From: an uncultured Clostridia bacterium
GTDB lineage: Bacteria > Bacillota > Clostridia > Christensenellales > UBA3700
Length of the DNA stretch: 64,000 nt
NCBI GenBank assembly: GCA_947646415.1
Contig: CANSGN010000004.1
Location: 3,743 to 67,742, forward strand
Direction: 5' to 3'
This document shows, in pieces, positions 10,970 through 44,568 of this stretch. Each line of letters opens with the position of its first letter. Position 1 is the first letter of the stretch. The position numbers were made by a program, and so were the translations under genes. The notes under the pieces were generated by a model that saw nothing but the letters and a program-made list of their open reading frames with translations, did no database searches and was not told the origin of the DNA.

Positions 10970-10999
10970 GTGTCAGAAATGGTATACTTTTTCTGACAC
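10970..10999. repeat. Palindrome S1 (candidate serine-recombinase crossover/binding site)
   Basis: GTGTCAGAAATGGTATACTTTTTCTGACAC. One of 4 copies in the window. On the minus strand it is followed by TTTTTT. Confidence 0.7.
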
Positions 11000-11105
11000 A
11001 AAAATACATTGGAAAAAATTGTCTTAAATTGTATAATTATGTTATTTGCATAAAATTTATACACAAATTTATAACTAACAATAATAAAAGTGTGCAAAAA
11101 GCTAA

Positions 11106-11135
11106 GTGTCAGAAAAAGTATACATTTCCTGACAC
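11106..11135. repeat. Palindrome S2 (candidate serine-recombinase crossover/binding site)
   Basis: GTGTCAGAAAAAGTATACATTTCCTGACAC, 136 bp from S1. On the plus strand it is followed by TTTTT. Confidence 0.7.
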
Positions 11136-11280
11136 TTTTTACACTTGTTGTAAAATACAAAATAAATGTTTTGCAATTTTCGGATAAAATGCTAAAATAT
11201 AAAATATGTGTCGTTAAATTTGAGAAAACTCAAATTTAAAAAAAGCTATCGCTTTTTCTTGATAAATCAAGCCGACATAG

Positions 11281-11349
11281 TTTGAATTAACAATCGCCGA
11301 TGTCAAATGCCACTTCGTGTCGCTTGACTACTGCTTCCGATATTATAAA
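11281..11349 (+). repeat. 69-bp direct repeat copy A upstream of the recombinase gene
   Basis: TTTGAATTAACAATCGCCGATGTCAAATGCCACTTCGTGTCGCTTGACTACTGCTTCCGATATTATAAA. About 84 percent identical to copy B by my count. Contains TGTCAA..17 nt..TTGACT. Confidence 0.6.
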
Positions 11350-11428
11350 CTATAGAAGGTAAATTTTAATTAGCATTAAAATTTTATATTGCTGTCGCAA
11401 TATAGCTTGTTATCACAAGTACTTCTAA

Positions 11429-11497
11429 TTTGAATTAACAATCGCTGATGTCAAATATCCCTATGGGCTGCTTGACTACAGCTTCCGATAATATAAA
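11429..11497 (+). repeat. 69-bp direct repeat copy B immediately upstream of the recombinase RBS
   Basis: TTTGAATTAACAATCGCTGATGTCAAATATCCCTATGGGCTGCTTGACTACAGCTTCCGATAATATAAA, 148 bp downstream of copy A. TTGACT-16nt-TAAAAT is a promoter-like arrangement. Confidence 0.6.
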
Positions 11498-11521
11498 ATA
11501 TGTACAATTAGGAGAAAAAAT

Positions 11522-12133
11522 ATGAAGATTTATGCTTATGCAAGAGTATCAACCAGCGACCAAAATCTTTCAAGACAATTAGATGCTTTTAAAAAATTCG
11601 GTGTACGCAAAACCAATATTTACACCGATAAAAAAAGCGGAAAAGATTTTGAAAGAATCAACTATAAAAAACTTATAGATAAGCTTAGTAAAGGCGATTT
11701 ATTGGTTATAAAATCTATTGACCGATTAGGCAGAAATTACACTGCCATAATTGAGGAATGGCGAAATATTACACATATAATCGGCGCGGATATTTGCGTT
11801 TTGGATATGCCCTTACTTGACACACGTTCAAAATACGACTCGCTTACAAGAAAATTAATATCAGATATAGTACTGCAAGTTTTGTCTTTTGTTGCGGAAA
11901 ACGAACGCGTAAACATAAGAGAGAGACAAAAAGAAGGTATTGCTGCAGCTATGAGACGAGGCGTACAATTCGGAAGACCGCGAAGGCTTTACGACGACGA
12001 TTTTATTAATACCATACAAAAATTCAAAAATAACGAAATAACTACTCATCAAGCGGCCACTCATCTTTCGGTAAACAGAACAAGTCTTTATTTTCATTTA
12101 GATAATTTAACAAAATTAGGTTTTATTTATTAA
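11522..12133 (+). CDS. Small serine recombinase (resolvase/invertase family)
   Basis: 203 aa. Catalytic N-terminus MKIYAYARVSTSDQNLSRQ (Ser10), SIDRLGRN, E-helix ENERVNIRERQKEGIAAAMRRGVQFGRP, C-terminal HTH. RBS AGGAG. No adjacent transposase or phage genes. Confidence 0.9.
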   Translation: MKIYAYARVSTSDQNLSRQLDAFKKFGVRKTNIYTDKKSGKDFERINYKKLIDKLSKGDLLVIKSIDRLGRNYTAIIEEWRNITHIIGADICVLDMPLLDTRSKYDSLTRKLISDIVLQVLSFVAENERVNIRERQKEGIAAAMRRGVQFGRPRRLYDDDFINTIQKFKNNEITTHQAATHLSVNRTSLYFHLDNLTKLGFIY

Positions 12134-12279
12134 TTTTTTTATTTACCCTCGTAAAAACACAACAAAAATCGAGCTTAATTGCTTATAAATTTTTTTATTA
12201 AAATATAAAAGGCATTATGCTAATCCAACTGAACGGCAAAAAAACAACCCCACATATCAATGCGGAGTCATTATTTTAT

Positions 12280-13011
12280 TTATCTATCAGAGTATTTCAT
12301 AGGTGGTACTCTTTTATGCTCGGTGCGTGCGTGAGCAGATTTTATCTTTTCGGCGAACTCACTTTCGCCTGTTTTGATAAATTTGTCAATCTCACTGTAC
12401 GAAACACCCATCTCTTTTTCGTCAGTTTGCCCCTCGTACAATCCTGCACTAGGTTGTTTTTGAATAATTTCCTTAGGGCAATTTAGATATTCAAGCATCC
12501 CGTAAACATCTTCCACAAGCAAATCGTTTATAGGATTGAAATCGTAACCGCCATCACCCCATTTTGTAAAATAACCCATATACATTTCGCTTGCATTACC
12601 TGTTCCTGCAACCAAATAGCCTTTTGCCTGCCCGATTGCATATATTACGGACATCCTTAATCTTGGATTTATGTTGTTATATGCCATTGGCACATCATTG
12701 CCTGCAAACGGCTCAATTACTTTTTTAAGTTCTTGCTTTGCACGCGTTATATCCACCTCGATTGTAGGAATATCAAAAGCTTTTGCCACCAAATATGCGT
12801 GTTCCCTATCACTGCCGTAATTTTGTGAGGACTCGCACGGCATAATAACCGAAAGCACATTAGGGGTAGCTTTGCGGCATAAAATCTCTACCAAACTGCA
12901 ATCTTTACCGCCACTGTTGCCCAAAATAACACCTTTGCTACCTGTTTTTTGCAAAATATCTTTTATCCATTGAACTCTGTTTTCAACTTCTATTTTAAAA
13001 TCCATAATCAT
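12280..13011 (-). CDS. nadE: NH3-dependent NAD+ synthetase
   Basis: 243 aa with a PP-loop (GNSGGKDCSLV) and typical NadE length. Start overlaps the hprK stop (ATGA). Confidence 0.85.
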   Translation of the reverse strand: MIMDFKIEVENRVQWIKDILQKTGSKGVILGNSGGKDCSLVEILCRKATPNVLSVIMPCESSQNYGSDREHAYLVAKAFDIPTIEVDITRAKQELKKVIEPFAGNDVPMAYNNINPRLRMSVIYAIGQAKGYLVAGTGNASEMYMGYFTKWGDGGYDFNPINDLLVEDVYGMLEYLNCPKEIIQKQPSAGLYEGQTDEKEMGVSYSEIDKFIKTGESEFAEKIKSAHARTEHKRVPPMKYSDR

Positions 13012-13949
13012 TCATCCTTTCCAAAATCTATATTTGCAAGTAATTGGTCAACCGCATTATAACCCAACTTTTTCAAACGCTCGTTTCTTGCTGCAACCTC
13101 TACGACTATTGCAAGGTTACGTCCCGGCATTACAGGCATTGTAAGTTTTGGTATTTCCAAACCCAATATATATTCAAATTGACTGCTTACGCCAAGTCTG
13201 TCATATTCTATATTTTCGCCCCAAGCTTGCAATTCAATAACCAAATCTATTCTCTTTTCTCTTAAAACAGAGCCTACACCAAACATACTGCGAACGTCTA
13301 TTATGCCTACACCTCGTATTTCCATATAGTGCATTATACTGTCGGGCGCAGTTCCGATAATTTCGTCCTGAATACGTTTTGCAATAACATTATCATCGGC
13401 AATCAACCTGTGTCCGCGGTGTATTAATTCCATAGCGGTTTCGCTTTTACCCATACCGCTATGACCTGTAATAAGCACGCCGATACCACTTACTTCAAGC
13501 AATACACCGTGAATTGTTTCAAAAGGTGCAAGTTTTCTGTTTAAGTAAGTGACCAAATCATTCACTAACTGCGATGTAAGTTTATTTGATTTAAATACAG
13601 GCACATCATATTTTTCCGAAATCTCTTTTAGTTCTTCAAACGGCTCAATGCTTTTTGACAAAATTACACAAGGTATTTTACGCTCAAATAAACTCTCTAG
13701 CTTTTTATACCTGTCCTCTTTTGTGCAAGAATGTAAATAATAATATTCCGCATTGCCCATAACTTGAATACGCTTTTCGCCAAAATAATCCTCAAATCCC
13801 GCAAGCAAAAGACCGGGACGATTAACGTTTATCGTTGTCAAAAACATTTCTCCCGATTTATTGCCTTGCACCAAATCCACACCGCAATCTTTTGCAAAAT
13901 TTTGAATACTGATTATTTCTCCTTGCCTTTCTTCCTTTTCTTCTATCAT
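13008..13949 (-). CDS. hprK: HPr kinase/phosphorylase
   Basis: 313 aa. Walker A GHSGMGKSETAMELI and the HprK/P signature region (MEIRGVGIIDV). Confidence 0.9.
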   Translation of the reverse strand: MIEEKEERQGEIISIQNFAKDCGVDLVQGNKSGEMFLTTINVNRPGLLLAGFEDYFGEKRIQVMGNAEYYYLHSCTKEDRYKKLESLFERKIPCVILSKSIEPFEELKEISEKYDVPVFKSNKLTSQLVNDLVTYLNRKLAPFETIHGVLLEVSGIGVLITGHSGMGKSETAMELIHRGHRLIADDNVIAKRIQDEIIGTAPDSIMHYMEIRGVGIIDVRSMFGVGSVLREKRIDLVIELQAWGENIEYDRLGVSSQFEYILGLEIPKLTMPVMPGRNLAIVVEVAARNERLKKLGYNAVDQLLANIDFGKDE

Positions 13950-14020
13950 ACTTCTCCTTATATGTTGCCATAAATGTCAACTGTACTTTCAAGCACTTAC
14001 TTTACTACACAAAAATGCGT

Positions 14021-14040
14021 TTAGTACCGATTTTCAAAAC
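14021..14040 (-). repeat. Dispersed intergenic motif, copy a
   Basis: Plus strand TTAGTACCGATTTTCAAAAC, the reverse complement of consensus CCTTTGAAAATCGGTACTAA. Lies 2 nt past the stop of 14043..14861. Confidence 0.5.
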
Positions 14041-14042
14041 AT

Positions 14043-14861
14043 TTAATGCAATAATAGTTCTTTTATTACTTTTGCAACGCCATTATTGTTATTGGTATCG
14101 CAAACATAATCCGCAACCTTTTTAGTCTCCTCCATGGCATTACCCATTGCTACACCAAGCCCTGCAAACTGTATCATACTGTTATCATTTTCTGCATCTC
14201 CAATAGCACAAATTTGCTCTCTTGGAATATTGTATTTTTCCGCAATAAATTTAACTGCATTGCCCTTGCTGGCTTTGATGTTAACACACTCTAACAAACC
14301 TTTGCTTGATTGGTTTATGTTAAGTTTATCGCCAAACTTATTTTGTAAATCTTGTATTACTTCACGTATATAGTTATTATCCGTCAAACTCAAAATTTTT
14401 CTTGCATTAAGATTGTTGGCTATTACATAATCGTCAAGTTTTTCATGTACGCAAACAAGCGGAACTTTTACAATACTTGCAAAATATTTATTAAACTCGT
14501 TTTCCTCCTCAACTATGCACTTATCGTCATAAAATAGCATAGGCGAAGTAATTTCCGAATATTTTTTATACAAATAACCATACACGCTTGCAGCCAAATC
14601 CCTATCGACTTCCTGCGAATAAATAAGCTCATCCGTTTTCAAATCGTAAACTCCGCTACCTTGGTATGTAATTATTTCGTCAGTAAGTTTGAATAATTCA
14701 GCAAAAGGCTTAACCGCTTGATAAAGCCTGCCTGTTGCAATAACAAACTTGCCTCCTTGCGCTTTAAAAAGTTCAACCGCCTCTACAGTTTCGTCGGTTA
14801 CTTTAAAATCGTCCGTATAAAGTGTGCCGTCAAAATCACACACTAACAATTTGTATTTCAT
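14043..14861 (-). CDS. Cof-type HAD-IIB family hydrolase (sugar phosphatase-like)
   Basis: Start moved to MKYKLLVCDFDGTL (ATG 14861, AGGAG 7 nt upstream). HAD motifs DFDGT and GDAENDNSM. Confidence 0.8.
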   Translation of the reverse strand: MKYKLLVCDFDGTLYTDDFKVTDETVEAVELFKAQGGKFVIATGRLYQAVKPFAELFKLTDEIITYQGSGVYDLKTDELIYSQEVDRDLAASVYGYLYKKYSEITSPMLFYDDKCIVEEENEFNKYFASIVKVPLVCVHEKLDDYVIANNLNARKILSLTDNNYIREVIQDLQNKFGDKLNINQSSKGLLECVNIKASKGNAVKFIAEKYNIPREQICAIGDAENDNSMIQFAGLGVAMGNAMEETKKVADYVCDTNNNNGVAKVIKELLLH

Positions 14862-14925
14862 ATTTACTCCTATAGTGATAAACAAAATATATAATACTTT
14901 ATTTATTTTAGCATTTTATGCAACT

Positions 14926-16755
14926 TTAGTCAATTACAGTATGATAGAATTGATAAATATTTGTTGCGACTTTATCGCTTATACCTTTAACTTCCGCAAG
15001 TTCTTCCCTACTTGCATTTTTTATTGCGGATAAAGTTTTAAAAGTTGCAAACAATTTTTTAACTGTAGAGTCTCCAACTCCCTCAATTTGCAGCAACTCG
15101 CTTTTAGTCTGCCTTTTACCGCGTAAATTGCGATGATAAGTAATTGCAAATCTATGAGCTTCGTCTCTTATCCTTTGCAACAACCGAAGTGCTTGGCTAT
15201 CTTTTGATAAAACCAACGGCTCGGAAATATGCGGCAAATATATTTCTTCCTCTCGCTCTGCCAAGCTTATAATATTAAAATGAACATTACTCTCTTCCAT
15301 TGCTTGCAGTGCGTACTTTAACTGACCTTTACCGCCGTCGACAACTATCAAATCGGGGGTGGAGGAAAAGGACATATCATCGTCTTTCAAATGCGAAAAA
15401 CGTCTTATCAAAGTTTCTTTCATTGATGCAAAATCGTTACTGCCCTCAACAGTTTTTATCTTAAACTTTCTGTACATTTTGCCTGCTTTTTCGCCATTTT
15501 CAAACACTACCATGCTCGATACTTTATCCGTACCGCTTATGTTGGAAATATCATAACATTCAATCCTGTTTGGCGGTATTGGCAAATTAAGCGCTTGCTG
15601 TAATTGGCTTACCGCACCCAAAGTCATATTGTACACTCTTTCCTCTTGGTTTTTGCATTTTACAAGATAGTCTTTTGCATTGGCGTAAGCCATATCAACT
15701 AGTTGTTTGCGAACACCCATAATAGGCGTTGCCACAAACACTTTACTACCTTTCTTTTCACTTAAATATCTGCTTATCAACTCAAAATCTTCAAACTCTT
15801 CGTTTACAAGTATTTGACTGACCAAAAGGCTGTTTCCGTTATAATAACTATACACAAAATTTTCCAAAGATTGAGCACAATCCAAGCTCAAATCGTTTAT
15901 AAGCTGCTTATCTCCGCCTAAAAGTTTACCGCCTCTTACAAATAACATTGAAACTACGGTGTTAATGCCGTCGCTCGCCAATGCAAAAATATCCATATCC
16001 AAATCGTTTGGCAAAGCAGTTACTTGTTTTCTTACAAGCTTTTCCAACACTTTTAGTCTTTCGCGATAGTAAATAGCAAGTTCAAACTCCTCTTTTTCGC
16101 TTGCTTGTAACATTTTTTCCTTTATTATTCGCTCGATAGACTTGTCATTTCCTTGTAAAAATTTGATTACTTCCCCTATTATTTCCATATACTGTTCATG
16201 GCTTATTGCTCCAACGCAAGGTGCCAAGCATCTGCCTATATGGTTATTTAGGCAAGGTCTATGGCTTTTTGGTGGATTATCCATATTTATGTTACAAGTC
16301 CTTAGCTTAAAAGCAGAGTGAATAAGTTCCATTATTTCTTTTGCGGAAATACCTTGCATATATGGTCCGAAATATTTAGCACCATCCTTTGCAAGTTTTC
16401 GCACCACTTGAATTTTAGGGAACTTTTCATTCATATTTATCCTAATAAAAGGATAATTTTTATCATCTTTCAATAAGATATTGTAAGGCGGCTTGTGTTT
16501 TTTTATAAGATTGTTTTCCAAAACCAATGCTTCTATTTCGTTATGAGTAATAATATAATCAAATGTATAGATTTTGGAAACCATTATCAAAACTTTTGTG
16601 GTTTTATTTTTTGGAGAACCGAAATATTGGCGCACCCTATTTTTCAAAGAGCGAGCCTTTCCGATATACAAGATTTCCCCACTTTCCGACTTCATTATAT
16701 AAACGCCGGGATTTTCGGGCAAATCTTTCAATTTTTGTTCGATTATTTCGTTCAT
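14926..16755 (-). CDS. uvrC: Excinuclease ABC subunit C
   Basis: 609 aa with an N-terminal GIY-YIG domain (GVYIMKSESGEILYIGKA), a UvrBC-interaction region and C-terminal HhH motifs. Confidence 0.95.
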   Translation of the reverse strand: MNEIIEQKLKDLPENPGVYIMKSESGEILYIGKARSLKNRVRQYFGSPKNKTTKVLIMVSKIYTFDYIITHNEIEALVLENNLIKKHKPPYNILLKDDKNYPFIRINMNEKFPKIQVVRKLAKDGAKYFGPYMQGISAKEIMELIHSAFKLRTCNINMDNPPKSHRPCLNNHIGRCLAPCVGAISHEQYMEIIGEVIKFLQGNDKSIERIIKEKMLQASEKEEFELAIYYRERLKVLEKLVRKQVTALPNDLDMDIFALASDGINTVVSMLFVRGGKLLGGDKQLINDLSLDCAQSLENFVYSYYNGNSLLVSQILVNEEFEDFELISRYLSEKKGSKVFVATPIMGVRKQLVDMAYANAKDYLVKCKNQEERVYNMTLGAVSQLQQALNLPIPPNRIECYDISNISGTDKVSSMVVFENGEKAGKMYRKFKIKTVEGSNDFASMKETLIRRFSHLKDDDMSFSSTPDLIVVDGGKGQLKYALQAMEESNVHFNIISLAEREEEIYLPHISEPLVLSKDSQALRLLQRIRDEAHRFAITYHRNLRGKRQTKSELLQIEGVGDSTVKKLFATFKTLSAIKNASREELAEVKGISDKVATNIYQFYHTVID

Positions 16756-16856
16756 TTTGCACCAAAAAAAATTTAAAACACACTTAAATCGCTTTTAATA
16801 TGTATGTATTAGTTATAAATATTTTAGCACAATTTCCTTTGCGGTGTCAATAGTAT

Positions 16857-17219
16857 TTATCCTATCCGCCTTGTCTCATAGGATTTTTGATAGTTATCCA
16901 CACCTGTCACTATTACGTCATTTACAAACGGATTTGTTATATAATAAACAATCAATTTACCATCCCTTTTGCAACCTACGATTTTAGCATCACGCAAAAT
17001 CTTAAGCTGATGTGAAACAGTGCTTTGATTTAATTTTAAGGTATAACACAAATCACATACACACATTTTAGCTATAGATAAAGCAGATAATATCCTTATT
17101 CTTGTATTATCCCCGAAAACGGAATAAAAATCCGCAATCATATTGCTTGCTTCAAATGAAGGCATATATTTTCTTAAAAATTCTTCATCTGCTTTATTTA
17201 TGTTTACATACTCTTCCAT
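16857..17219 (-). CDS. ArsR/SmtB-family metalloregulatory transcriptional repressor
   Basis: 120 aa. Winged HTH with an alpha-3 metal motif of the ELCVCDL type (KMCVCDLCYTL) and recognition helix QSTVSHQLKILRDAKIV. Confidence 0.85.
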   Translation of the reverse strand: MEEYVNINKADEEFLRKYMPSFEASNMIADFYSVFGDNTRIRILSALSIAKMCVCDLCYTLKLNQSTVSHQLKILRDAKIVGCKRDGKLIVYYITNPFVNDVIVTGVDNYQKSYETRRIG

Positions 17220-17377
17220 TTAAACCTCCGATTACTTTATTAAATAAAACGAAATAAATTGGTGTTTTTTAAAATAATAACTAAAATATTTTAAAAAAAC
17301 TTTCCGTTTATTTGTAACAACTTCATAAAATGACGCATATTGTAGTAAAAGAAAGAAAACATATTTTCGGAGGTCTT

Positions 17378-17599
17378 ATGAATAATTGTAATTGTAGCGG
17401 ATTATTACCTTTAATTTTTGGATATATTACAGGCAGCAACTCTCAAAACGGCTGTGGCTGTAATTGCGGTTGCAACTGCGACCAAAACATTATGCCAATC
17501 AATAACAATAACGGTTTTGGCAATAATTGTTGGCTGATATTATTGTTGATTTTAGTTTGCGGTTGCTCTAACAACAATGGTTGTAATTGCAACAACTAA
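17378..17599 (+). CDS. 73-aa Cys/Asn/Gly-rich small protein with CxC repeats and two hydrophobic segments
   Basis: Start chosen at ATG 17378, 5 nt after GGAGG. Sequence MNNCNCSGLLPLIFGYITGSNSQNGCGCNCGCNCDQNIMPINNNNGFGNNCWLILLLILVCGCSNNNGCNCNN (12 Cys). Followed by a terminator. Divergent from the ArsR gene. Confidence 0.55.
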   Translation: MNNCNCSGLLPLIFGYITGSNSQNGCGCNCGCNCDQNIMPINNNNGFGNNCWLILLLILVCGCSNNNGCNCNN

Positions 17600-17626
17600 T
17601 CATACTTAAAAGTGTTTTCAAACAAA

Positions 17627-17659
17627 ATAATCCTTAGACAAAATCTAAGGATTATTTTT
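17627..17659 (+). terminator. Intrinsic terminator after the Cys-rich ORF
   Basis: Stem ATAATCCTTAG / CTAAGGATTAT followed by TTTTT. Confidence 0.6.
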
Positions 17660-17755
17660 GTTATATTACAATTTAATATCGATTTTTGATGTATTTTAAT
17701 GAGTTATTAATTAAAAAGTTAAACTTTAAACAACTAAATTCAAACTACAATAAAA

Positions 17756-19159
17756 TCACATCATATATTTTTTCAATTTTTTGATACCTGCTCTTAACTC
17801 TTTAGCTTTATCTTCATAGCCGGGTCTGCCAAGCAAAGCGTAAGTCGCATTTTTACCTTCCTCAACACCCGGTTGATTGAATGGGTCAATGTTCAACATA
17901 AAGCCGCAGTAAGCAGTCTTTAGTTCAAAGAACATCATTAATTGTCCCAAAGTGTACTCGTTAACTGTTGGCAAGTAAATTGTGTGGTTTAATTTGCCTG
18001 CTTTTGTAACAGCGTATTCAGTTGCTTTTCTTTCTGCAGTGATAAGCTCGTTCATAGTGTGACCGCAAAGGAAATTAACATTAGGGAAATCTTCGCAACC
18101 GTTAGGGATAACAACCTTTTTACGATATTTATCTACAGCGATAAATGTAATAACCTTATCAAAAGGTCCTTCTGTGTATAATTGAATTTGGCTGTGTTGG
18201 TCAGTTACGCCAAGTGCTTTAACAGGTGTTTGACCGATATTGCAAGGAGTTCCGTCCATTAATTTGTTTTTACCAAGGCTCTCACCCCAAAGTTGGCAAT
18301 ACCAATCTGCAATAAATTTCAAGCTGTCTGCATAAGGCAACATAACAGAAATATTGTGACCTTTATTGATTGCGATAAATTGAAGTGTTGCTGCTGTCAA
18401 AGCCATATTATCAGCTTTTTCGCCGTTTACACAGCTATCGTACATAAATTTTGCACCCTCAAGCATTTTCTTAATATCAATACCAAGCACTGCTGCAGGA
18501 AGCAAACCTACAGGACAAAGCTCACTGAATCTGCCGCCTACACCGTCAGGGATATAAAAAGTTTTGTAGCCCTCTGCTTTTGCAATTTTAATCAAGTTAC
18601 CGCTATTTGCAGAAGTTGTTGTGATGATATGCTCTTTAGGGTTCAAACCTGCTTTTTCCAAAGCGTCTTTGATTACCAAATATTGAGTCATAGTCTCACT
18701 TGTAGAGCCGCTTTTTGTAATAACGTTAAAGCAGCTATCTTTAAGCTTGATAGTATTTAGCAATGCAACCATTCTTTCAGGGTCAACATTATCCTCTACA
18801 TAAAATTTAGGTGCATTTTTTCTGCGACCTTGGTTAACTTCGTTGTGATGCAAATGGCAAAGAGCTTGGAAAGCCGAAATAGGACCTAAAGCAGAGCCAC
18901 CGATACCCAAAACTACAAAGTTTTTAAACTTGCTGCGAACTTCTTCCGCTGTTTTGATAATATCCTCAACCACAGCATCTTGCTCGTCATGCAACTTTGT
19001 CCAGCCCATAAAACCTGTGCCTTTCTTTTCATTGAAGTAATCTACAGCAAAGTCAACTCTGTCAGCTACTGCGTCAAAATCAGCCGAAGTAAAACCTTTA
19101 CTACCGATTACATCCGCCATCATATTATTGTAATCCAATCTAATTTTATTTTTATCCAT
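17756..19159 (-). CDS. pgi: Glucose-6-phosphate isomerase
   Basis: Bacterial PGI of about 467 aa. Start moved to ATG 19159 (MDKNKIRLDY), 5 nt after GGAGG; the track ORF begins at an upstream TTG. Confidence 0.9.
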   Translation of the reverse strand: MDKNKIRLDYNNMMADVIGSKGFTSADFDAVADRVDFAVDYFNEKKGTGFMGWTKLHDEQDAVVEDIIKTAEEVRSKFKNFVVLGIGGSALGPISAFQALCHLHHNEVNQGRRKNAPKFYVEDNVDPERMVALLNTIKLKDSCFNVITKSGSTSETMTQYLVIKDALEKAGLNPKEHIITTTSANSGNLIKIAKAEGYKTFYIPDGVGGRFSELCPVGLLPAAVLGIDIKKMLEGAKFMYDSCVNGEKADNMALTAATLQFIAINKGHNISVMLPYADSLKFIADWYCQLWGESLGKNKLMDGTPCNIGQTPVKALGVTDQHSQIQLYTEGPFDKVITFIAVDKYRKKVVIPNGCEDFPNVNFLCGHTMNELITAERKATEYAVTKAGKLNHTIYLPTVNEYTLGQLMMFFELKTAYCGFMLNIDPFNQPGVEEGKNATYALLGRPGYEDKAKELRAGIKKLKKYMM

Positions 19160-19217
19160 ATATTCCTCCAATGGTTAAAATTTTAATATATATTTTTTTA
19201 ATATAATAGTTAAATTA

Positions 19218-20003: not shown

Positions 20004-20065
20004 AAAACCTCCGACAAACTGCCCGAATAGCTTTGCAAATTAACAAAAATAAGTTTTTTATAACC

Positions 20066-20638: not shown

Positions 20639-20639
20639 A

Positions 20640-21443: not shown

Positions 21444-21706
21444 ATTTCTCCTTTCACATCATTAATTTTCAGTCAAACTAAAACAATGATTAATCAAGAT
21501 TATGTATCAATTATAATATATATTTATAATAAAATCAAGTTATTTGAAAAAAAATTATGAAAAATAAAAAAACAGCATCTCAAATTTTCGTCAAAAAACG
21601 GCTTTAACAAAAGTATGAACTAAATTAATGTGGCAATACTTAAACTGAATATCAGTAGAAAAAAAATAGCCATATACATATCATATAATGGTGGCAAAGG
21701 AGTAAT

Positions 21707-22054: not shown

Positions 22055-22055
22055 C

Positions 22056-23693: not shown

Positions 23694-23712
23694 ATATTTA
23701 CCGTTCGTTTAA

Positions 23713-33497: not shown

Positions 33498-33517
33498 TTA
33501 ACCCCGATTTTCAAAGG
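33498..33517 (-). repeat. Dispersed intergenic motif, copy d
   Basis: Plus strand TTAACCCCGATTTTCAAAGG, 6 nt past the stop of 33524..35026 and next to the terminator hairpin AACAAGCA/TGCTTGTT (about 33471..33495). Confidence 0.45.
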
Positions 33518-33523
33518 TTTATC

Positions 33524-35026: not shown

Positions 35027-35189
35027 AAAAACCTCATCAAAACAATTTTATAAATATTTTATATCAAAAAAAACGCAGTTTGTTCAATACCTTATATAAA
35101 AATAAACTTTATGGTGCTTAATATTAATAAAAACTACTTGAATGTGTAAAAAAACTAACAATAAAAGCAATTTAAATATAAATTAACAA

Positions 35190-35216
35190 CAATAAAAGGC
35201 TGTCATAAGACAGCCT
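35190..35216 (-). terminator. Intrinsic terminator after pck
   Basis: Stem AGGCTGTC / GACAGCCT with loop ATAA and T-rich sequence downstream on the minus strand. Confidence 0.65.
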
Positions 35217-35248
35217 AAAATTTGTTTTATATCATTTAAATTTAAAAA

Positions 35249-37015: not shown

Positions 37016-37152
37016 ATTTATACTCCTTTTCAAAAATGTATATTATTAACATATTATATTGTGAAAAATTCCCATTTCCCACTAGATAACATTATAACAA
37101 AATTTTTTTTGCATTGCAAGAACTTTTATAAAATTTTACAAAATTTTCATAA

Positions 37153-37431
37153 TTATTTTGTGCTTTGCTTATTTTTACTATAATCCATTATAAATTTATA
37201 TAATGCAATAATGTCATCGGCATATTCTTTTTCATCGTCTTTCAAAACGCTTAAAACATTATTCAAAACTTGTTGCTCACGCCCCTCATCCAAAACGGCG
37301 ATATTATTAGCTTTTTTATAATTTGCAATATTTTTTACTGCCATCATACGAGTTTTGTAAAAGGATGCGATTGCTATATCCAATGTATCAATAATTTCTC
37401 TGCTGCTTTTTAAATCAATCATAAATTTCAC
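37153..37431 (-). CDS. Chorismate mutase (AroQ class, small)
   Basis: 92-aa helical protein at the end of the aro operon (REIIDTLDIAIASFYKTRMMAVKNIANYK..., EQQVLNNV). Overlaps the aroC stop. Confidence 0.7.
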   Translation of the reverse strand: MKFMIDLKSSREIIDTLDIAIASFYKTRMMAVKNIANYKKANNIAVLDEGREQQVLNNVLSVLKDDEKEYADDIIALYKFIMDYSKNKQSTK

Positions 37432-38488
37432 TCTCCATAATCATATCTAATATTGCTATTGCTGTTACACATTCCACACAAGGTACGGCACGTGCAACTA
37501 CGCAAGGGTCATGTCTGCCCTTAATTTCTATCGTTGTGTCACTCATTTTCTTAAAATCTATTGTATCCTGACACCTTGCAATACTTGGCGTAGGTTTAAC
37601 TTTAACGGCAAATAATATTGGCATGCCATTTGTTATACCTCCGTTAATACCTCCGTCATGATTTGTAATGGTTACAGGTTTACCTCCATCCATTTTATAA
37701 CTGTCATTGTATAAAGAGCCTTTAAGCAAACTTTCCTCGCCGAACTCAATACCTTTAATTGCAGGTATACCGAAAATAGCTTTAGCAATGTTATTTTCAA
37801 CTCCGTCAAACAAAGGAGAGCCTACTCCCGCTTTAATACCTGTTACAACACACTCAATCCTACCGCCTACACTGTCAAGGTTTTCACGTGCGGTCAAAAT
37901 TTCCTCACGCATTTTATCCTCGTTTGCAATAGCTTGTATTTGCTTTTCTCTTAATATTTCAAAAGTATTTTTGTCCAACCTGTTGCCAAGTCTTTGGCCT
38001 TTCACACTCCCAATTTCAAAAATATTCGCACAAATGTCAATGCCTTTATTTTTTAGGATAGCCATACACAAACTGCCCGCCATAACCATTGGAGTGGTAA
38101 GTCTTCCCGAAAAATGTCCGCCACCGCGAATATCGTTAAAACCTTTATACCTTACAAAACCGCTGTAGTCGGCATGTGATGGTCTTGCAACAGTAGCTAT
38201 ATTCGAGTAATCTTTGCTGTGCTGTCCTACATTATATATTACCATTGTAAGCGGAGTTCCTGTGGTGTAATCATTGTAAACACCGCTCAAAAACTGCACT
38301 TCGTCCGCCTCTACTCTTGCAGTCATAGTTTTATCTTTACCTGTCGCACGTTTACTCAAATATTTACTTATTAAATTTTTATCAACATACTCTCCGCTGG
38401 GAAGTCCGTTGATAACGACACCCACAGCATTACCGTGAGATTCTCCGAAAATACTGATTTCCAAATTTTTACCTAATGTTGATGACAT
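37415..38488 (-). CDS. aroC: Chorismate synthase
   Basis: 357 aa. N-terminal GKNLEISIFGESHG and SHADYSGFVRY-type motifs. Confidence 0.9.
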   Translation of the reverse strand: MSSTLGKNLEISIFGESHGNAVGVVINGLPSGEYVDKNLISKYLSKRATGKDKTMTARVEADEVQFLSGVYNDYTTGTPLTMVIYNVGQHSKDYSNIATVARPSHADYSGFVRYKGFNDIRGGGHFSGRLTTPMVMAGSLCMAILKNKGIDICANIFEIGSVKGQRLGNRLDKNTFEILREKQIQAIANEDKMREEILTARENLDSVGGRIECVVTGIKAGVGSPLFDGVENNIAKAIFGIPAIKGIEFGEESLLKGSLYNDSYKMDGGKPVTITNHDGGINGGITNGMPILFAVKVKPTPSIARCQDTIDFKKMSDTTIEIKGRHDPCVVARAVPCVECVTAIAILDMIMESEIYD

Positions 38489-40727
38489 TTATCACACCTC
38501 CCAAAGCGACATAATTTTCCCAAAAATCGGGATAACTTTTTTTGACAACTTGCGCATTTTTCACAGTCACTTTTCCGTCCGCAAAAGTTGCCAATATTGC
38601 AGCTGTCATAGCCATTCTGTGGTCGCCGTAACTATCGACAATTACCCTGCCTTTTACTGTTCCTCCGACAATTACCAAATCGTCGCCCACTATACTTGCC
38701 TTAATTCCAAATGTATTTAAAATTTCGCAAGTTGCAGCCAATCTGTCGCACTCTTTTATCCTAAGTCTTGCACAATTTTTTAAAGTTGAAGTTCCTTTCA
38801 ATTTTGCAAGTAACACGCCGAAAATCGGGGCTAAATCTGGAATATTAGAAATATCAATGTCCAAAGCCAAACCTTGTTCAGCCTTTTTTACAATCTCCAA
38901 AACTATTTTATCCCCTTGTTTGGAGTTATCTTGCGCTATAGGCAAATGTACTCCTCCCACTTCCCAAAAAGCAAGATTGCTGTAGTCAACTTCCGGTGAT
39001 AAATCATACTTCGTTCCGTCAATTTTTTTAGGGATAACTACAAAGCTGTTTTTCTCTTCCACCACTTCGCAACCAAATTGTTTTAACACTTGAATAGTCA
39101 TATCGACATATCCGCGCGATACAAGTTGTCCCGTCAAATTTATGGTAATTTTTTTATTGCTTGCATAAGCTCCAAGCATAATACCACTTACAAATTGCGA
39201 GGACATATTTCCGTTGATGGTAATTTCGTCCATATCGTAATTTCCGTAAATATTCAATGGCAAGCCGCTTGTTTTATCAAAATTAACTTTGCTACCCATG
39301 GCTGTAATTATATCCTCGTAGCCACGCTCGCCAAGTCTTTCAGTGCCTGTAAATTGCGTTTTTATACCAAGCATAGCACAGATAGGTATAAAAAATCTAA
39401 ATGTACTGCCACACTCCCCGCAATCTATTACCGCACTATTTGTTAAGTTAAAGCCGTTAAATGTTACATTATTTTTGTTTATCACAAAATCTGCACCAAT
39501 ATTTTTCAAGGCATTTAAAGTTGCTTTGATATCATTGCTTAATACAACATTGCTTACCACTGCTTTACCACCGCAAAAAGCCGACATAATCAAAAGTCTG
39601 TGTAAATGCGATTTTGATGGCGGAGGACATATACTTCCGCTCAATTTACTTGGGGTAATCTCTATATCAAAAGTACTTTCTTTCACGCTTTCCGTCAAAT
39701 TGATTGGTGCACCAAGTTTTACATTTTCCAATCTGCAATCCCCAATGGCATAAGGACGTGCGATTGTTAAATAATCTCCATGACGCTTTTTGTCATTGCC
39801 TGCATTTGCCCACAATTCGTCAGCAGACAATTTGTAATCAATCGGCATATTGTATTTTTGAGCAACTGCTTTGATTTTTTGCAAAATAAAATCGATTTCA
39901 CTGCTACCTGCAAATTTTTGAGCAATGTAAAACATTCCGATAAGTACAGCCTTGCCGTGTGCCAAAGTATATTTACTATCCTTTTCAATAACGTGTCCCA
40001 ATGTATGTCCTAAATTTAAAAGCTGTCTTTTGCCTTTGTCAAATACATCTCCGCTTACATACTCGTCTTTTATTTTTACACATATTTCTATAATTTCACT
40101 TATATTGTCAAACAATTTACCGTTTAATAGCAAATCAAAAAGACCTTTGTCCTCAAGCACTCCGTATTTAGCAATTTCTCCAATACCATCCGCTATCAAA
40201 TCGTAGGACAATGTAGCCAAAACATTTGTGTCACAAATAACTACTTTAGGCTGATAAAACGAGCCTACTTGATTTTTACCCGCAGTGATATTAACAGCGG
40301 TTTTTCCTCCAACCGAAGAGTCCACCATACTAAGCAATGTGGTAGGTATATTGATAAAATCAACACCGCGCAAATAACTGCTTGCCGCAAAACCGACCAT
40401 ATCTCCGCATACACCGCCGCCCAAAGCAATTACCAAGTCAGTACGAGTAATTTGAGACTTGGCCAAAAAATCGTAAATTTTTGACAGTTCCGCTAGACAC
40501 TTACTGCTCTCTCCGTTAGGGAAAGAGTAGGTAAAAATTTGGTTTGAATATCCCTTAAAGCTCGTAACAACTTTGTCAAGATACAATTTTTCCACAAGAC
40601 TATCTGTTATAACAGCAATCCTGTCATAACTTTTTATTTGATTGACCAAACTTCCTACTTCATTAAGCAAGCCGTCTCGCACAAGTACATTATAAGTTGG
40701 ATTTGTATTGATTTTAATAACTCTCAT
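38469..40727 (-). CDS. aroB/aroA: Fused 3-dehydroquinate synthase (AroB, N-terminal ~345 aa) / 3-phosphoshikimate 1-carboxyvinyltransferase (AroA, C-terminal ~405 aa)
   Basis: Single 752-aa ORF. N-half has DHQS motifs (LGGGVCGDMVGFAAS, NLGHTLGH). C-half has EPSPS motifs (PPSKSHLHRLLIMSA, RIKECDRL, DHRMAM). Confidence 0.85.
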   Translation of the reverse strand: MRVIKINTNPTYNVLVRDGLLNEVGSLVNQIKSYDRIAVITDSLVEKLYLDKVVTSFKGYSNQIFTYSFPNGESSKCLAELSKIYDFLAKSQITRTDLVIALGGGVCGDMVGFAASSYLRGVDFINIPTTLLSMVDSSVGGKTAVNITAGKNQVGSFYQPKVVICDTNVLATLSYDLIADGIGEIAKYGVLEDKGLFDLLLNGKLFDNISEIIEICVKIKDEYVSGDVFDKGKRQLLNLGHTLGHVIEKDSKYTLAHGKAVLIGMFYIAQKFAGSSEIDFILQKIKAVAQKYNMPIDYKLSADELWANAGNDKKRHGDYLTIARPYAIGDCRLENVKLGAPINLTESVKESTFDIEITPSKLSGSICPPPSKSHLHRLLIMSAFCGGKAVVSNVVLSNDIKATLNALKNIGADFVINKNNVTFNGFNLTNSAVIDCGECGSTFRFFIPICAMLGIKTQFTGTERLGERGYEDIITAMGSKVNFDKTSGLPLNIYGNYDMDEITINGNMSSQFVSGIMLGAYASNKKITINLTGQLVSRGYVDMTIQVLKQFGCEVVEEKNSFVVIPKKIDGTKYDLSPEVDYSNLAFWEVGGVHLPIAQDNSKQGDKIVLEIVKKAEQGLALDIDISNIPDLAPIFGVLLAKLKGTSTLKNCARLRIKECDRLAATCEILNTFGIKASIVGDDLVIVGGTVKGRVIVDSYGDHRMAMTAAILATFADGKVTVKNAQVVKKSYPDFWENYVALGGVINVINIR

Positions 40728-40745
40728 ATTTCAACCGATTATTGA

Positions 40746-41165
40746 TTAGTTTAGCAAAGCTTGCAATGCCAATTTGTATGATTTTTCTCCAAATCCCGCA
40801 ATTACTCCTACGCAAACTGCGGAAATTACAGATGTATGCCTGAACTCTTCACGCTTATGAACATTACTTAAATGCACTTCAACGCAAGGAGTTTCTATAC
40901 TGCTTATTGCATCTCTTATCGCAATGGAATAGTGTGTATATGCCCCGGCATTCAAAATGATTCCGTCGTACAATCTGCCACTATGGATAAATTCTACTAT
41001 TTCGCCCTCGATATTGCTTTGTACAAATTCGATTTCCGCACCATAAGCTTTCGCTTGTACTGCCAAATCTTTGTTTATATCGTCCAAGCTTTTTCCGCCA
41101 TAAATGTGCGGCTCTCTTACGCCTAGCATATCCAAATTCACACCATTAATAACTAATATTTTCAT
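40746..41165 (-). CDS. aroQ: 3-dehydroquinate dehydratase, type II
   Basis: 139 aa. MKILVINGVNLDMLGVREPHIYG and HLSNVHKREEFRH motifs. Confidence 0.9.
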   Translation of the reverse strand: MKILVINGVNLDMLGVREPHIYGGKSLDDINKDLAVQAKAYGAEIEFVQSNIEGEIVEFIHSGRLYDGIILNAGAYTHYSIAIRDAISSIETPCVEVHLSNVHKREEFRHTSVISAVCVGVIAGFGEKSYKLALQALLN

Positions 41166-41656
41166 ATTTTCTCCTTTACAAATCGTACAATTTGCTCCGT
41201 CATTTTTTTCAAATTATTGCCATATACTGTTAAATTTGCCACTTTTTTATAATGCGCAACCCTATCGTTGTAATGTTCTTCAAGTTCCGACTTGTTTTTT
41301 TGCTTTACTATCGGCCTGTCAGTCGTTTTTATTCTTTTATAGCAATCTTCAAATGAACTGTCAATATAAACCACAAACATACCATTTAGCAGTTTTTTGT
41401 TTTCGTCCGCAATCGGAACACCCCCGCCTAACGAAAGCACAGTGTTGTCAGCGTTTAAAAAACTTGCTAAAGCCGAATATTCACACTGCCTGAAATACGC
41501 TTCCCCATAATCAGCAAAAATTTGAGGTATACTCATGTTCTCTTTTTTCTCAATATAATCATCAAGGTCAACAAAGTCAAAAGCCAATTTTTTAGCAAGC
41601 ATTTTGCCTAAAGTGCTTTTGCCACTCCCCATATATCCACACAATGCAATTACCAT
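41162..41656 (-). CDS. aroK: Shikimate kinase
   Basis: 164 aa. Walker A GYMGSGKSTLGKMLA and the GGG motif LSLGGGV. Confidence 0.85.
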   Translation of the reverse strand: MVIALCGYMGSGKSTLGKMLAKKLAFDFVDLDDYIEKKENMSIPQIFADYGEAYFRQCEYSALASFLNADNTVLSLGGGVPIADENKKLLNGMFVVYIDSSFEDCYKRIKTTDRPIVKQKNKSELEEHYNDRVAHYKKVANLTVYGNNLKKMTEQIVRFVKEKI

Positions 41657-42447
41657 TTTTTATCTAGCTCCTTTTGAGTGTAAAGAATGATATATTTTAT
41701 GTCTTTTTCCTCAAACTTACCGCCGTACCAATATTCGTGTGATTTTACGGCTTGCAAAACAAGCATGTCCAATCCGTTTTTATATTTGCAACCGCACTCT
41801 TTTGCATACTTTAAAAGCTTGGTTTCGTATGGGTTATAAATTGTGTCATACACAGATTTTGCATTTTGAATAACATTTTTTTCTATCGGCGAACTGTTTA
41901 TATCTGGGTACATACCTACAGGCGTACTGTTTACTATCAAATCAAACTGTTGATTAGAAATATTTTGTATATCAACCACTTTTACTTCGCCAAATTGACA
42001 TTTAATATCTTTAATTTTACTATCCGTCAAATTACGTATTGCTATCCACAAATTGCAAGCCGCATATTGTTTGGCTATCATACTGCCTACTCCGCCACAA
42101 CCCAACAAAAGTACACTGCAATTAAAATCGCTTTCTATTTCGCTTACGCTTTTCGTGTAGCCGTAAACATCTGTATTATACCCCTTAAAATCGCGGTCAA
42201 CACAATTAACTACACCTAAATTTTTGGCACTTTTATGAATACTTTCGCACAAATTAAATACGTCTTTTTTATACGGTATTGTAACATTAAAGCCGTCCAA
42301 CTTGCTGCTTTTTACAAAGTCATTTACATTGTCCGTCTCATAAAGCTTATATTCTGCATGCACTCCGCTTATCTCAAACAGTTGATTGTGAATATATGGC
42401 GATAGCGAATGTCCCAATTTTTTTCCTAAAAGTCCGTATTTTTCCAT
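41650..42447 (-). CDS. aroE: Shikimate dehydrogenase
   Basis: 265 aa. LGHSLSPYIHN N-terminal motif and NAD(P) site LLLGCGGVGSMI. Confidence 0.85.
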   Translation of the reverse strand: MEKYGLLGKKLGHSLSPYIHNQLFEISGVHAEYKLYETDNVNDFVKSSKLDGFNVTIPYKKDVFNLCESIHKSAKNLGVVNCVDRDFKGYNTDVYGYTKSVSEIESDFNCSVLLLGCGGVGSMIAKQYAACNLWIAIRNLTDSKIKDIKCQFGEVKVVDIQNISNQQFDLIVNSTPVGMYPDINSSPIEKNVIQNAKSVYDTIYNPYETKLLKYAKECGCKYKNGLDMLVLQAVKSHEYWYGGKFEEKDIKYIILYTQKELDKKW

Positions 42448-42530
42448 AATTTTTATTTTATATTACATATCTTATTGTCAAAATATTATACGTTTAAAAT
42501 TTAATAAACCAACTCACAAATATGCTATTT

Positions 42531-43184
42531 TTACTTTATTTGTTCCAAAATTTTTACTATATCCATTGGTTTTTCCGCAATATATTTTACACCTAGCTCT
42601 TCATGCAATTCCCTTGGTCTAAAACCCCAAGTTACAGCAATAAATTTAAGTCCGCTGTTTTTTGCGGTTTCAAAGTCAACTTCGGAATCCCCTATATAAA
42701 CACTTTCCTCCGACTTTGCCCCCATAAGCTCCAAAGCATACCAAACACCGCTTGGGTTTGGCTTGGGTTGTACTTTTTCACTCTCTCCTATAGCAACAGA
42801 CAAATAACCTGTAAACAATTTTTGGGCAAGTTCCTTTACACCCGCATCAAATTTGTTGGAAACAACACTCATTTTTATACCTTTTGCTTGCAAAACTTGC
42901 ATAAGCTCTAAAATACCATCATAAGGACAAGTGTTGTCATTTTTGTGTAAATTGTAGTGTCCCATAAACTTTTTAAAGCAAATGTCAAACTCCTCAGCGG
43001 TATATCCCTTTGGCATTGCTCGGTCGATAAGCACTTTTACCCCGTTTCCTACAAAAGATAAAACTTCCATCATGCTCCTTTTAGGATAACCGCACTCTGC
43101 CAAAGCAAAATTGACACTATTATACAAATCGTCGATAGTATTTAAAATAGTACCATCCATATCAAAAACTACATTTTTTATCAT
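42531..43184 (-). CDS. HAD-IA family hydrolase (phosphoglycolate phosphatase-like)
   Basis: 217 aa. HAD motifs VVFDMDGTILNT, SNK and GDSEVD. Confidence 0.75.
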   Translation of the reverse strand: MIKNVVFDMDGTILNTIDDLYNSVNFALAECGYPKRSMMEVLSFVGNGVKVLIDRAMPKGYTAEEFDICFKKFMGHYNLHKNDNTCPYDGILELMQVLQAKGIKMSVVSNKFDAGVKELAQKLFTGYLSVAIGESEKVQPKPNPSGVWYALELMGAKSEESVYIGDSEVDFETAKNSGLKFIAVTWGFRPRELHEELGVKYIAEKPMDIVKILEQIK

Positions 43185-43534
43185 TTTAACTCCACAAATT
43201 TTGCGTATAAAACACCACTTTAATATTAATAATTATAAACCATTAACCCGTATTTTGTCAATAATCACAACTAAAAAGTATATTTATTATTTATATATCA
43301 AATAAAACCCGTGCTTATATTGGGCACAAAATTGCGATTAATAATTTAATTAGCTATAAAATATTTTTGTTAATAAAAAATCTAGTTGAATATTAAAAAA
43401 AAATAAATCCGACGAAAATATCGAATTTATTTTACTACAACAAAATGTTAAATCTACATTTATATGTTAATTAATATTTTAAATACAAAACATTACGTTT
43501 AGCAACATTACATTTAAAATTATTACCTCAATAC

Positions 43535-44332
43535 TTACACATTTTCCAAGGCATCCCTCAAATATTGCGGTATACTAATTGGATCAGACCCTAGCATATA
43601 AATAAATTTACCCTCTCTATCTTCGTCACCATATATAAATGTACAAATCAAATCATTTCCTACAATCTTGATTGTAAAATCTTCAAAATCACTACCTTTA
43701 ATACCATGATATATTCCATCGTCTTTCTTTTCAAAAAGCAAATCAAGGTCATTTTCGCCGAATATCATTAAATCATATATATTTATAATATCTTTAGGTG
43801 CGGAAACTTCTGGTAGCATTTCTATATAAAAATTGAGATAATCGCAAATATCATCGATACTTTCCAACTTTAAAATCTCCCAACGACTCAAATCTGCACT
43901 ATCAATAGGACCATAAAAATAGTTTGCCTTATTCTTTTCTGTAATTTCTAAGTATTTTACAGTTTCTAGATTACTAAACATACAAATATTTCCATGAATT
44001 GTGATTTTAATATCGCTATAAGCGGGTTGATAAAATGATTTTGACGAACTAGCTTTCCATACATTCATATATTCCTTTATAGTAGCATTCGGGCTTATAA
44101 TGTTTTCCTCATTATTGCCACCATCGTTTCCGCCATTTTCAATGTCACTATGATTTCCGCCATTTTCGGTATTCCCACCTTGGTTATTTCCTCCACCGAT
44201 AATTTCTTCACTATCATTGCCATTGTTTCCGCTGTTGTTGCCACCTACAGTTCCATCACAAGCAACAAGTGCCATACATGCTATTATCGCAATAACAATA
44301 ATTGCAACAATCAAAAAAACTTTTTTCTTCAT
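43535..44332 (-). CDS. Hypothetical surface lipoprotein with Gly/Asn-rich linker
   Basis: 265 aa. Signal peptide with lipobox LVACDG, a ~60-aa GGNN-rich low-complexity linker, then a ~170-aa domain of unknown family. RBS AAGGAG. Confidence 0.6.
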   Translation of the reverse strand: MKKKVFLIVAIIVIAIIACMALVACDGTVGGNNSGNNGNDSEEIIGGGNNQGGNTENGGNHSDIENGGNDGGNNEENIISPNATIKEYMNVWKASSSKSFYQPAYSDIKITIHGNICMFSNLETVKYLEITEKNKANYFYGPIDSADLSRWEILKLESIDDICDYLNFYIEMLPEVSAPKDIINIYDLMIFGENDLDLLFEKKDDGIYHGIKGSDFEDFTIKIVGNDLICTFIYGDEDREGKFIYMLGSDPISIPQYLRDALENV

Positions 44333-44402
44333 AAAAACTCCTTTTTATCCAATTAGTATTTATTGATAAAATTTCAAATTTAAACGGTCATTATGCATTT
44401 AT

Positions 44403-44432
44403 CTGTCAGAAAAGGTATACTTTTTCTGACAG
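44403..44432. repeat. Palindrome S3 (candidate serine-recombinase crossover/binding site)
   Basis: CTGTCAGAAAAGGTATACTTTTTCTGACAG, 70 bp upstream of the 43535..44332 start codon. Confidence 0.7.
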
Positions 44433-44440
44433 TTAATCAG

Positions 44441-44469
44441 TTGACATAAAAATTTATTTGTTGTACAAT
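44441..44469 (+). promoter_or_regulatory. Near-consensus sigma-A promoter inside the S3-S4 cassette, pointing away from the lipoprotein gene
   Basis: TTGACA (44441..44446), 17-nt spacer, TACAAT (44464..44469). Confidence 0.45.
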
Positions 44470-44538
44470 AAATATATTATAAAAGGATAAAATTTTAAAA
44501 AATATAACCTTTATTTATACAATTTACACAAAATCAAA

Positions 44539-44568
44539 GTGTCAGAAAAAGTATACTTTTTTTGACAC
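44539..44568. repeat. Palindrome S4 (candidate serine-recombinase crossover/binding site)
   Basis: GTGTCAGAAAAAGTATACTTTTTTTGACAC, 136 bp from S3. On the plus strand it is followed by TTTTT. Confidence 0.7.

Follow-up and report, generated by a model that had tools for sequence, protein, structure and literature searches.

Two pairs of palindromes in the window

The stretch of DNA analysed here (the window; 64,000 nucleotides, C4:3743-67742) belongs to the 1.73-Mb, 31-contig assembly of an uncultured mouse-gut Christensenellaceae bacterium. It carries four 28-bp near-palindromes, S1 to S4, in two pairs some 33 kb apart, and each pair encloses a short insert with a promoter; the pairs are referred to below as switch 1 (S1 and S2) and switch 2 (S3 and S4). 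It is likely that S1-S4 are the recombination sites of two members of an 11-unit family of very small invertons. Switch 1 lies between a lipoprotein gene and the gene of a small serine recombinase, and switch 2 lies beside a second lipoprotein gene. The features concerned are as follows (OFF denotes a promoter directed away from the adjacent gene).

8450-10798, minus strand: gene for a BspA-type leucine-rich-repeat (LRR) lipoprotein, 782 aa (PF13306, 1e-136), flanking switch 1
10933-10961, minus strand: fixed promoter TTGACA-17-TATAAT outside S1, 12/12 consensus, aimed at the BspA-LRR gene
10971-10998, no strand: S1, 28-bp site of switch 1, with outer arm TGTCAGAAATGGTA toward the BspA-LRR lipoprotein gene; this arm stays with the flank on inversion
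10999-11106, plus strand: insert of switch 1, 108 bp, invertible, its promoter directed rightward to the recombinase gene in this assembly
11009-11037, plus strand: cassette promoter of switch 1, TTGGAA-17-TATAAT
11107-11134, no strand: S2, second 28-bp site of switch 1, outer arm facing the recombinase gene, then CTTTTTACAC
11522-12133, plus strand: small serine recombinase gene, 203 aa, candidate invertase for all 11 switches
43535-44332, minus strand: lipoprotein gene (lipoprotein-2), 265 aa, without a Pfam match, on the gene side of switch 2
44404-44431, no strand: S3, gene-side site of switch 2, with variant outer arm TGTCAGAAAAGGTA
44432-44539, plus strand: insert of switch 2, 108 bp, its promoter directed away from the lipoprotein gene (OFF)
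44441-44469, plus strand: cassette promoter of switch 2, TTGACA-17-TACAAT
44540-44573, plus strand: S4, non-gene-side site of switch 2, with a CTTTTT tail; with the insert end CAAAG it would give a 16-bp RNA hairpin and then a U-run, terminator-like for the OFF state

Exact copies of the half-site TGTCAGAAAAAGTA lie at four places in the window, 10985-10998 (-), 11107-11120 (+), 44418-44431 (-) and 44540-44553 (+), where shuffled sequence gives an expectation of 0, and all four copies are the cassette-facing (inner) arms of the sites. The consensus of the 28-bp near-palindrome is TGTCAGAAAAAGTA|TACTTTTTCTGACA with AT at its centre. S1 and S2 each show two departures from a perfect palindrome, S3 and S4 one each, and the outer arms of S1-S4 are, in order, TGTCAGAAATGGTA, TGTCAGGAAATGTA, TGTCAGAAAAGGTA and TGTCAAAAAAAGTA. 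The original prediction had described four such near-palindromes with identical inner arms, and these are present at the positions it gave (10971-10998, 11107-11134, 44404-44431 and 44540-44567), each with the self-complementary AT centre (GTA|TAC) that had been claimed for it. The outer arms also read exactly as listed there, with the correction that they differ by 1-2 nt rather than 1-3; the inserts, put at 106 bp, are 108 bp long once the sites are counted as 28 bp. In architecture the two inserts are homologous, and with both promoters on the + strand they share one orientation; the opposite arrangement is excluded by alignment and promoter mapping.

The fixed promoter at 10933-10961 sits 9 nt outside S1, the same spacing from a palindrome as that of the cassette promoters. 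Judged from its sequence, the BspA gene may have a constitutive promoter besides switch 1.

Inversion at switch 1 and the family of promoter cassettes

In the close relative G007 the insert of the switch 1 orthologue is inverted, with both outer arms in place and with flanks that are 93-94% identical. After in-silico inversion between the palindrome centres 261 of 284 positions match, compared to 202 of 284 without it. Furthermore, a Logan contig (SRR35578125) encoding an identical BspA protein carries the switch 1 insert inverted and identical at all 108 of its 108 positions; the orientation of this assembly is found in six other assemblies with the identical BspA protein (two Logan and four ENA contigs). 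A k-mer chimera cannot explain the inverted contig because the contexts of S1 and S2 have only 18 nt in common. Inversion is real at switch 1, where the same segment lies in both orientations between fixed flanks, as the definition of an inverton demands. The comparative data place the crossover between position 11 of the outer arm and the insert. At switch 2 two independent ENA contigs have the orientation found here (OFF). ON-state units are found in other species, and we infer that the other ten loci also flip.

A 275-kb contig from the same species (L176, NCBI GCA_965114215.1) ends 2 nt past S2, a break that is suggestive of mixed switch 1 orientation in its sample. Contig ends at palindromes were otherwise rejected as proof of heterogeneity, most Logan breaks being explained by 30-mers common to several loci. 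Two contigs of G008 that start inside near-identical inserts were considered as two orientations of one locus; they are paralogous loci instead.

A fuzzy search of the 1.73 Mb found 22 sites, which form 11 pairs and leave zero unpaired full sites. Each unit consists of a palindrome, an insert of ~108 bp and a second palindrome, and each insert holds a promoter close to the consensus TTGACA-N17-TATAAT; in 42 of 42 units from seven genomes the promoter matches at 10-12 of the 12 consensus positions and lies 8-11 nt from one palindrome. In the oriented alignment the gene-side palindrome is followed by 8-10 nt, then by TTGACA-N17-TATAAT and by a leader of ~70 nt in which the blocks TTTATAAC and TTTATAAA are conserved; the insert ends in ...AAAG, after which come the non-gene-side palindrome and C-T5-6. 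One flank of nearly every unit holds a lipoprotein or membrane-protein gene within 50-300 bp, and the other begins C-T5-6-nCAC and faces either the end of a convergent gene or no gene. The promoter is directed to the non-gene side (the OFF state) in most assemblies. The lipoproteins among the cargo are of the BspA-type LRR and collagen-repeat kinds, and the remaining cargo comprises zinc-ribbon membrane proteins, TM2 and BamE-like proteins, an ATP-binding cassette (ABC) transporter and a xanthine/uracil permease.

The sites are present in seven of the nine genomes of the genus and in none of the 32 genomes that represent other genera of the family and order. Apart from a few single-base variants of the GTATAC core, the self-complementary AT centre is kept throughout. 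The inserts of different loci are strongly diverged in sequence, and one palindrome is retained in empty alleles; on these grounds an identity of the units as transposons or miniature inverted-repeat transposable elements (MITEs) was rejected. The unit at C12:33702-33855, before the xanthine/uracil permease gene, has a 98-bp insert, a 126-bp spacing and the -10 element TATACT.

In G007 a single palindrome stands exactly at the orthologues of two full units (C19:8700-8863 and C9:219-381), where the flanks abut and are 94-96% identical. From these alignments it seems that the lone palindrome is the remnant to be expected of recombination between two non-polar sites in deletion alignment. The proposal that such sites would permit both inversion and deletion fits the inverted insert at switch 1 (108/108) and the lone palindrome at these two loci.

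Larger differences are found as well. Whole modules, each made of the surface gene or genes, the switch and a 32-71-bp non-gene flank, lie at C4:85461-88826 and C15:8610-11671 and are precisely absent in G007; their junctions are without palindromes, and one has a 7-bp overlap. The switch-controlled genes thus behave as strain-variable islands. Elsewhere in G007 a multi-copy sequence resembling an insertion sequence (L162, G007:C1:21500-26000) occupies the position that the C7 switch, upstream of an ABC transporter, has in the present genome.

A candidate recombinase and a candidate terminator

The protein encoded at 11522-12133 matches PF00239 (1.7e-28, residues 3-148), and its YARVSTSDQ (family motif YxRVSTxxQ) lines up with the motif around the catalytic serine in Sin and gamma-delta resolvase. 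Residues 163-202 gave weak helix-turn-helix matches (E 0.009-0.04, below the cut-off), and a length of 203 aa is in keeping with the family. Of its solved relatives the nearest are Sin/Bin3 (2e-25) and gamma-delta resolvase (5e-22), with Tn3 resolvase also among them; the match to Gin is 7e-13. No second small serine recombinase is encoded in the genome; two large serine and eight tyrosine recombinases lie elsewhere in it. Within the genus, exactly one orthologue is found in each of the seven genomes with sites (7/7) and none in the two without (2/2). Identity to the enzyme of the window is 84-100% in genomes whose sites are of the TGTCAG type and 61-63% in those with TGTCAA sites. The order of lipoprotein gene, paired palindromes and recombinase gene recurs in two other genera of the family, where the palindromes are diverged and lie 105-106 bp apart, and more distant homologues in Lachnospiraceae and other Clostridia have adjacent palindrome pairs built on AAAAAGGTATACCTTTTT. 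These comparisons make it likely that the serine recombinase beside switch 1 is the enzyme for all 11 switches, and by sequence this type of switch appears to be widespread in gut Clostridia.

Recombinase homologues at L081, L142, L145, L164 and L165 adjoin palindrome pairs built on AAAAGGTATACCTTTT, with a spacing of 105-137 bp. The hosts of these loci are Lachnospiraceae, Anaerobutyricum, Eubacteriales and two other genera of the same family, and L081 contains a strong internal promoter.

The leader of the recombinase gene (window 11195-11500) contains tandem 69-bp repeats that are part of a dispersed, hairpin-rich repeat of ~250 nt, other copies of which lie at C12:54000-54301, C16:16500-16780 and C9:51047-51200; one copy is reversed relative to the nearest gene. 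A search of Rfam gave no match to the ~250-nt repeat. With this result, its dispersal at four genomic places in all and the fact that it is unrelated to the half-site, an NAD+ riboswitch and res accessory sites were both rejected as its identity. Instead of accessory sites for the recombinase, the repeat may represent a small RNA gene or an element of the MITE kind.

The earlier reading of the palindromes as crossover sites of a small serine recombinase agrees with their length of 28 bp, their symmetric AT centre and the adjacent enzyme, which is closest to the Sin, gamma-delta and Tn3 resolvases. One recombinase dimer would sit on each 28-bp site, and two dimers would synapse across a 136-bp loop of ~13 helical turns. 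We infer cleavage at the central AT; the exchange of strands there would flip the 136 bp between the centres and would leave the outer arms with their flanks. The sites are without polarity because they are palindromic with a symmetric AT centre, and therefore excision or integration of a cassette would also be possible.

Most centre-to-centre spacings of the units (105/106, 115, 126/127, 134-137 and 146 bp) fall near 10, 11, 12, 13 and 14 helical turns. Blocks within the inserts are also conserved, TTTATAAC-N5-TTTATAAA and, in some units, TGG-N9-CCA; these blocks are candidate accessory sites and, together with the helical phasing, candidates for the factor that restricts the outcome of recombination. 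Two other assignments were rejected: TGGCA-N5-TGCCA at the centre as a sigma-54 promoter, its GG-GC spacing being 10 instead of 12 and the motif occurring in some units only, and a second outward promoter at the TTTATAAC block, which is without a conserved -35 element.

The variation among the arms is not spread as had been expected. Across the 42 units the mean number of mismatches is 0.29 for inner arms, 0.35 for non-gene-side outer arms and 1.19 for gene-side outer arms (p = 3e-6), and the gene-side changes cluster at position 7, where A becomes T, and at position 11, where A becomes G or T. The "drifting outer arms" of the original prediction are in effect a single varying arm at two positions, the other outer arm being conserved like the inner arms, and therefore the contrast is between the gene side and the other three arms rather than between inner and outer.

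This contrast is consistent with a role of the site in termination. In the OFF direction the palindrome is extended by pairing of the insert-end AAAG with the flank CTTT to a hairpin of 16-17 bp. On the OFF side the mean folding energy is -19.3 kcal/mol, followed by 5.5 T in 8, compared to -11.1 kcal/mol and 2.5 T in 8 on the ON side (p = 6e-6, n=31). By folding, a stable hairpin stands directly before a U-run at the non-gene side, as in an intrinsic terminator. The first position of the stem extension holds G/C in 29 units and C/G (a compensatory change) in six; it is unpaired in seven, five of which are ON-state units. At switch 2 the hairpin of S4, on the non-gene side, has -18.1 kcal/mol and that of the gene side -11.3. 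Switch 1 has two variant outer arms and a weak outward hairpin on either side (S2 -11.5 kcal/mol, the other -14.1), as would suit a switch with genes on both sides (recombinase and BspA). We propose from this modelling that in the OFF state the recombination site also provides the stem of a terminator. In the ON state the promoter would read through the gene-side site into the lipoprotein or membrane-protein gene; in the OFF state the transcript would meet the perfect non-gene-side palindrome, extended by AAAG/CTTT, and then the U-run, which together would act as an intrinsic terminator. Three arms would stay at consensus and the gene-side outer arm would be changed because its changes, at positions 7 and 11, make for a weaker hairpin where transcription has to read through.

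Alternative readings and known systems

Several observations weigh against the interpretation of the units as invertons that are served by one serine recombinase and end their own OFF-state transcripts. Flipping was seen at switch 1 only, and at five other loci 16 of 16 informative independent contigs are OFF. The C12 unit, which is ON in each of the four species that carry it, may be a fixed former switch. One of the spacings, 119 bp, is out of helical phase. The recombinase was assigned from linkage and co-occurrence only, and eight tyrosine recombinases are also present. The terminator function was deduced from folding and covariation, and neither S2 nor S4 was called on the + strand in a simple terminator scan, because part of the T-run is taken up by the stem. 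Finally, the lone palindromes of G007 are without the exact outer-arm variants expected from a central crossover of the present alleles; they may be ancestral empty sites or ordinary products of repeat-mediated deletion.

There is some chance, though not a large one, that the units are more than flip switches and are excisable and re-insertable promoter cassettes, combined with a feedback on flipping rate at switch 1. The enzyme would then cut out 136 bp and leave a lone palindrome and a promoterless, locked-off gene, and the excised cassette may refill docking sites; switch 1 would feed the recombinase gene one way and the BspA adhesin gene the other. If this were true the units would make up a movable promoter cassette system loosely comparable to integron cassettes, and the orientation of switch 1 would set the flipping rate of the whole set.

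It is rather improbable that the asymmetry of the arms is itself a record of arrival, in which a 136-bp circle (the insert plus a perfect inner/inner palindrome) was excised and reintegrated in lone palindromes, so that the mobile cassette would have supplied the inner arms and the docking site the outer ones. Such a history would suit the lone palindromes exactly at two orthologous positions in G007, the non-polar sites that allow both excision and integration, and the fact that the two inner arms are mutually identical in 29 of the 42 units, even where they are off consensus (C5). The strong divergence of the inserts between loci, which means that there was no recent spread, speaks against it. 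It also leaves unexplained why only the gene-side outer arm varies and why insert end and non-gene flank covary; the other presence/absence differences concern whole gene-plus-switch modules with junctions lacking palindromes, and a 136-bp circle is mechanically demanding.

A regular joining of S1/S2 with S3/S4 and with other loci by the recombinase, which would invert the 33-kb block and swap promoter cassettes between surface genes, is very unlikely. There is no sequence bar to it at the crossover, since 22 of 22 sites have the same inner arms and the symmetric AT centre, and one contig (L189, Logan SRR10799536) joins an insert of the C15 type to the gene-side palindrome and flank of lipoprotein-2. 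This contig may be a cassette swap or an inter-locus crossover; it was rejected as proof of inter-locus exchange because a chimeric path with k = 31 exists via k-mers shared with C8 (TTT+palindrome and palindrome+GATAA), and the other end of its cassette is lost at the contig end. In G007 the switches are collinear and 33.5 kb apart, both flanks are kept at 6 of the 6 loci common to G000 and G007, and flank swaps are absent from the more than 10 orthologous pairs compared across species. The junction diagnostic of the 33-kb event would be insert 1, the palindrome and then GATAAATGCATAATGACC; all nine contigs that span switch 1 or 2 (9/9) have the parental junctions. The inversion or excision of the block that had been suggested was thus seen neither in these contigs nor in G007. 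The event is possible in principle and unobserved, probably owing to a strong preference, imposed by the short in-phase loop, for pairing the two sites within a unit; such a preference would suppress inter-locus events generally.

Alternatively, the cassettes could be flipped by a tyrosine recombinase, the 28-bp site being read as 11-bp arms with a 6-bp GTATAC spacer, similar to dif or lox. This 11-6-11 division is formally possible and the genome has eight tyrosine recombinase genes, but none of these is linked to a switch. The serine enzyme, on the other hand, is syntenic with a switch in three genera, co-occurs perfectly with the sites in the genus and has a clade structure that the site variant tracks, and its distant homologues also adjoin similar palindrome pairs; we give the tyrosine enzymes very little credence. 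That the palindromes are operators of a dimeric repressor which loops the 136-bp promoter segment, with no recombination at all, is scarcely credible, for although two in-phase palindromes around a promoter are the classical looping geometry, the identical insert is found inverted between unchanged flanks and most unit promoters point away from the only nearby gene, which would be senseless for a static operator.

The reading of S1-S4 as sites of small invertons under one serine recombinase invites comparison with several known systems. In the Mpi (ssr2) regulon of Bacteroides fragilis one serine recombinase acts on many dispersed inverting promoters (PMC10403206, citing Coyne et al. 2003). 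By analogy, the present system would have one small serine recombinase and many short, scattered promoter cassettes before surface-structure loci, with combinatorial display possible; the marks of an Mpi-like regulon, many dispersed units with one site sequence and a single small serine recombinase, are found here in 11 units, the last of them by co-occurrence. It differs in its host, which is one of the Clostridia (Christensenellaceae) and not of the Bacteroidota, and in its cargo of single lipoprotein or membrane-protein genes instead of capsule operons. In addition, its sites, near-perfect palindromes of 28 bp, are symmetric at the centre, its likely enzyme stands nearer to the Sin and gamma-delta resolvases, there would be a built-in terminator, and there are cassette-less alleles.

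With Hin/hix, Gin/gix, Cin and Pin the units share a small serine recombinase (by the assignment above), inversion of a segment that bears a promoter or gene, between two dimer-binding sites, and a recombinase gene at the switch. In hix and gix an asymmetric central dinucleotide fixes the orientation of the site, a Fis-bound enhancer is required and the segments are 1-4 kb long. The present units have an AT centre and a segment of 136 bp, and their candidate enzyme matches Gin far less well than Sin or gamma-delta resolvase. No enhancer of the Hin/Gin type was identified at the units, which do have conserved internal blocks. The closer likeness is to res site I of Tn3/gamma-delta and Sin, in the symmetric 28-bp crossover site and in the closest solved relatives of the enzyme. 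Like gamma-delta site I, the switch sites measure 28 bp, have outer ends of the TGTC type and are rich in A/T in the middle, around a symmetric AT centre. Genome-wide searches with the half-site gave the paired sites and a few isolated half-sites, none of them beside units; accessory sites II/III were not found. Unlike the res systems, the units invert a promoter rather than resolve cointegrates, and each has two sites 136 bp apart. Like fimS of E. coli and flgB/cwpV of Clostridioides difficile, they are short invertible elements in which OFF-state termination would contribute and orientation may feed back on the recombinase. Those systems use tyrosine recombinases and asymmetric inverted repeats, whereas here the site itself, with the T-run of the flank, appears to be the terminator.

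No published description for Christensenellaceae or for this type of site was found in the literature searched, and to our knowledge surface variation driven by a global invertase has hardly been described in Christensenellaceae and other gut Clostridia. The anatomy is instructive, since a resolvase-like enzyme would work on fully symmetric sites of the res site I kind and the site would double as a terminator stem. It makes testable how serine recombinases whose sites lack polarity choose inversion over deletion and a near site over a distant one, and for this no more would be needed than a 164-bp substrate and the single 203-aa protein. Synthetic memory circuits are a possible use for switches as compact and self-insulated as these. 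For the biology of the family, the 11 units would extend surface variation driven by a global invertase from Bacteroides to Christensenellaceae and, via the homologous loci, to other gut Clostridia.

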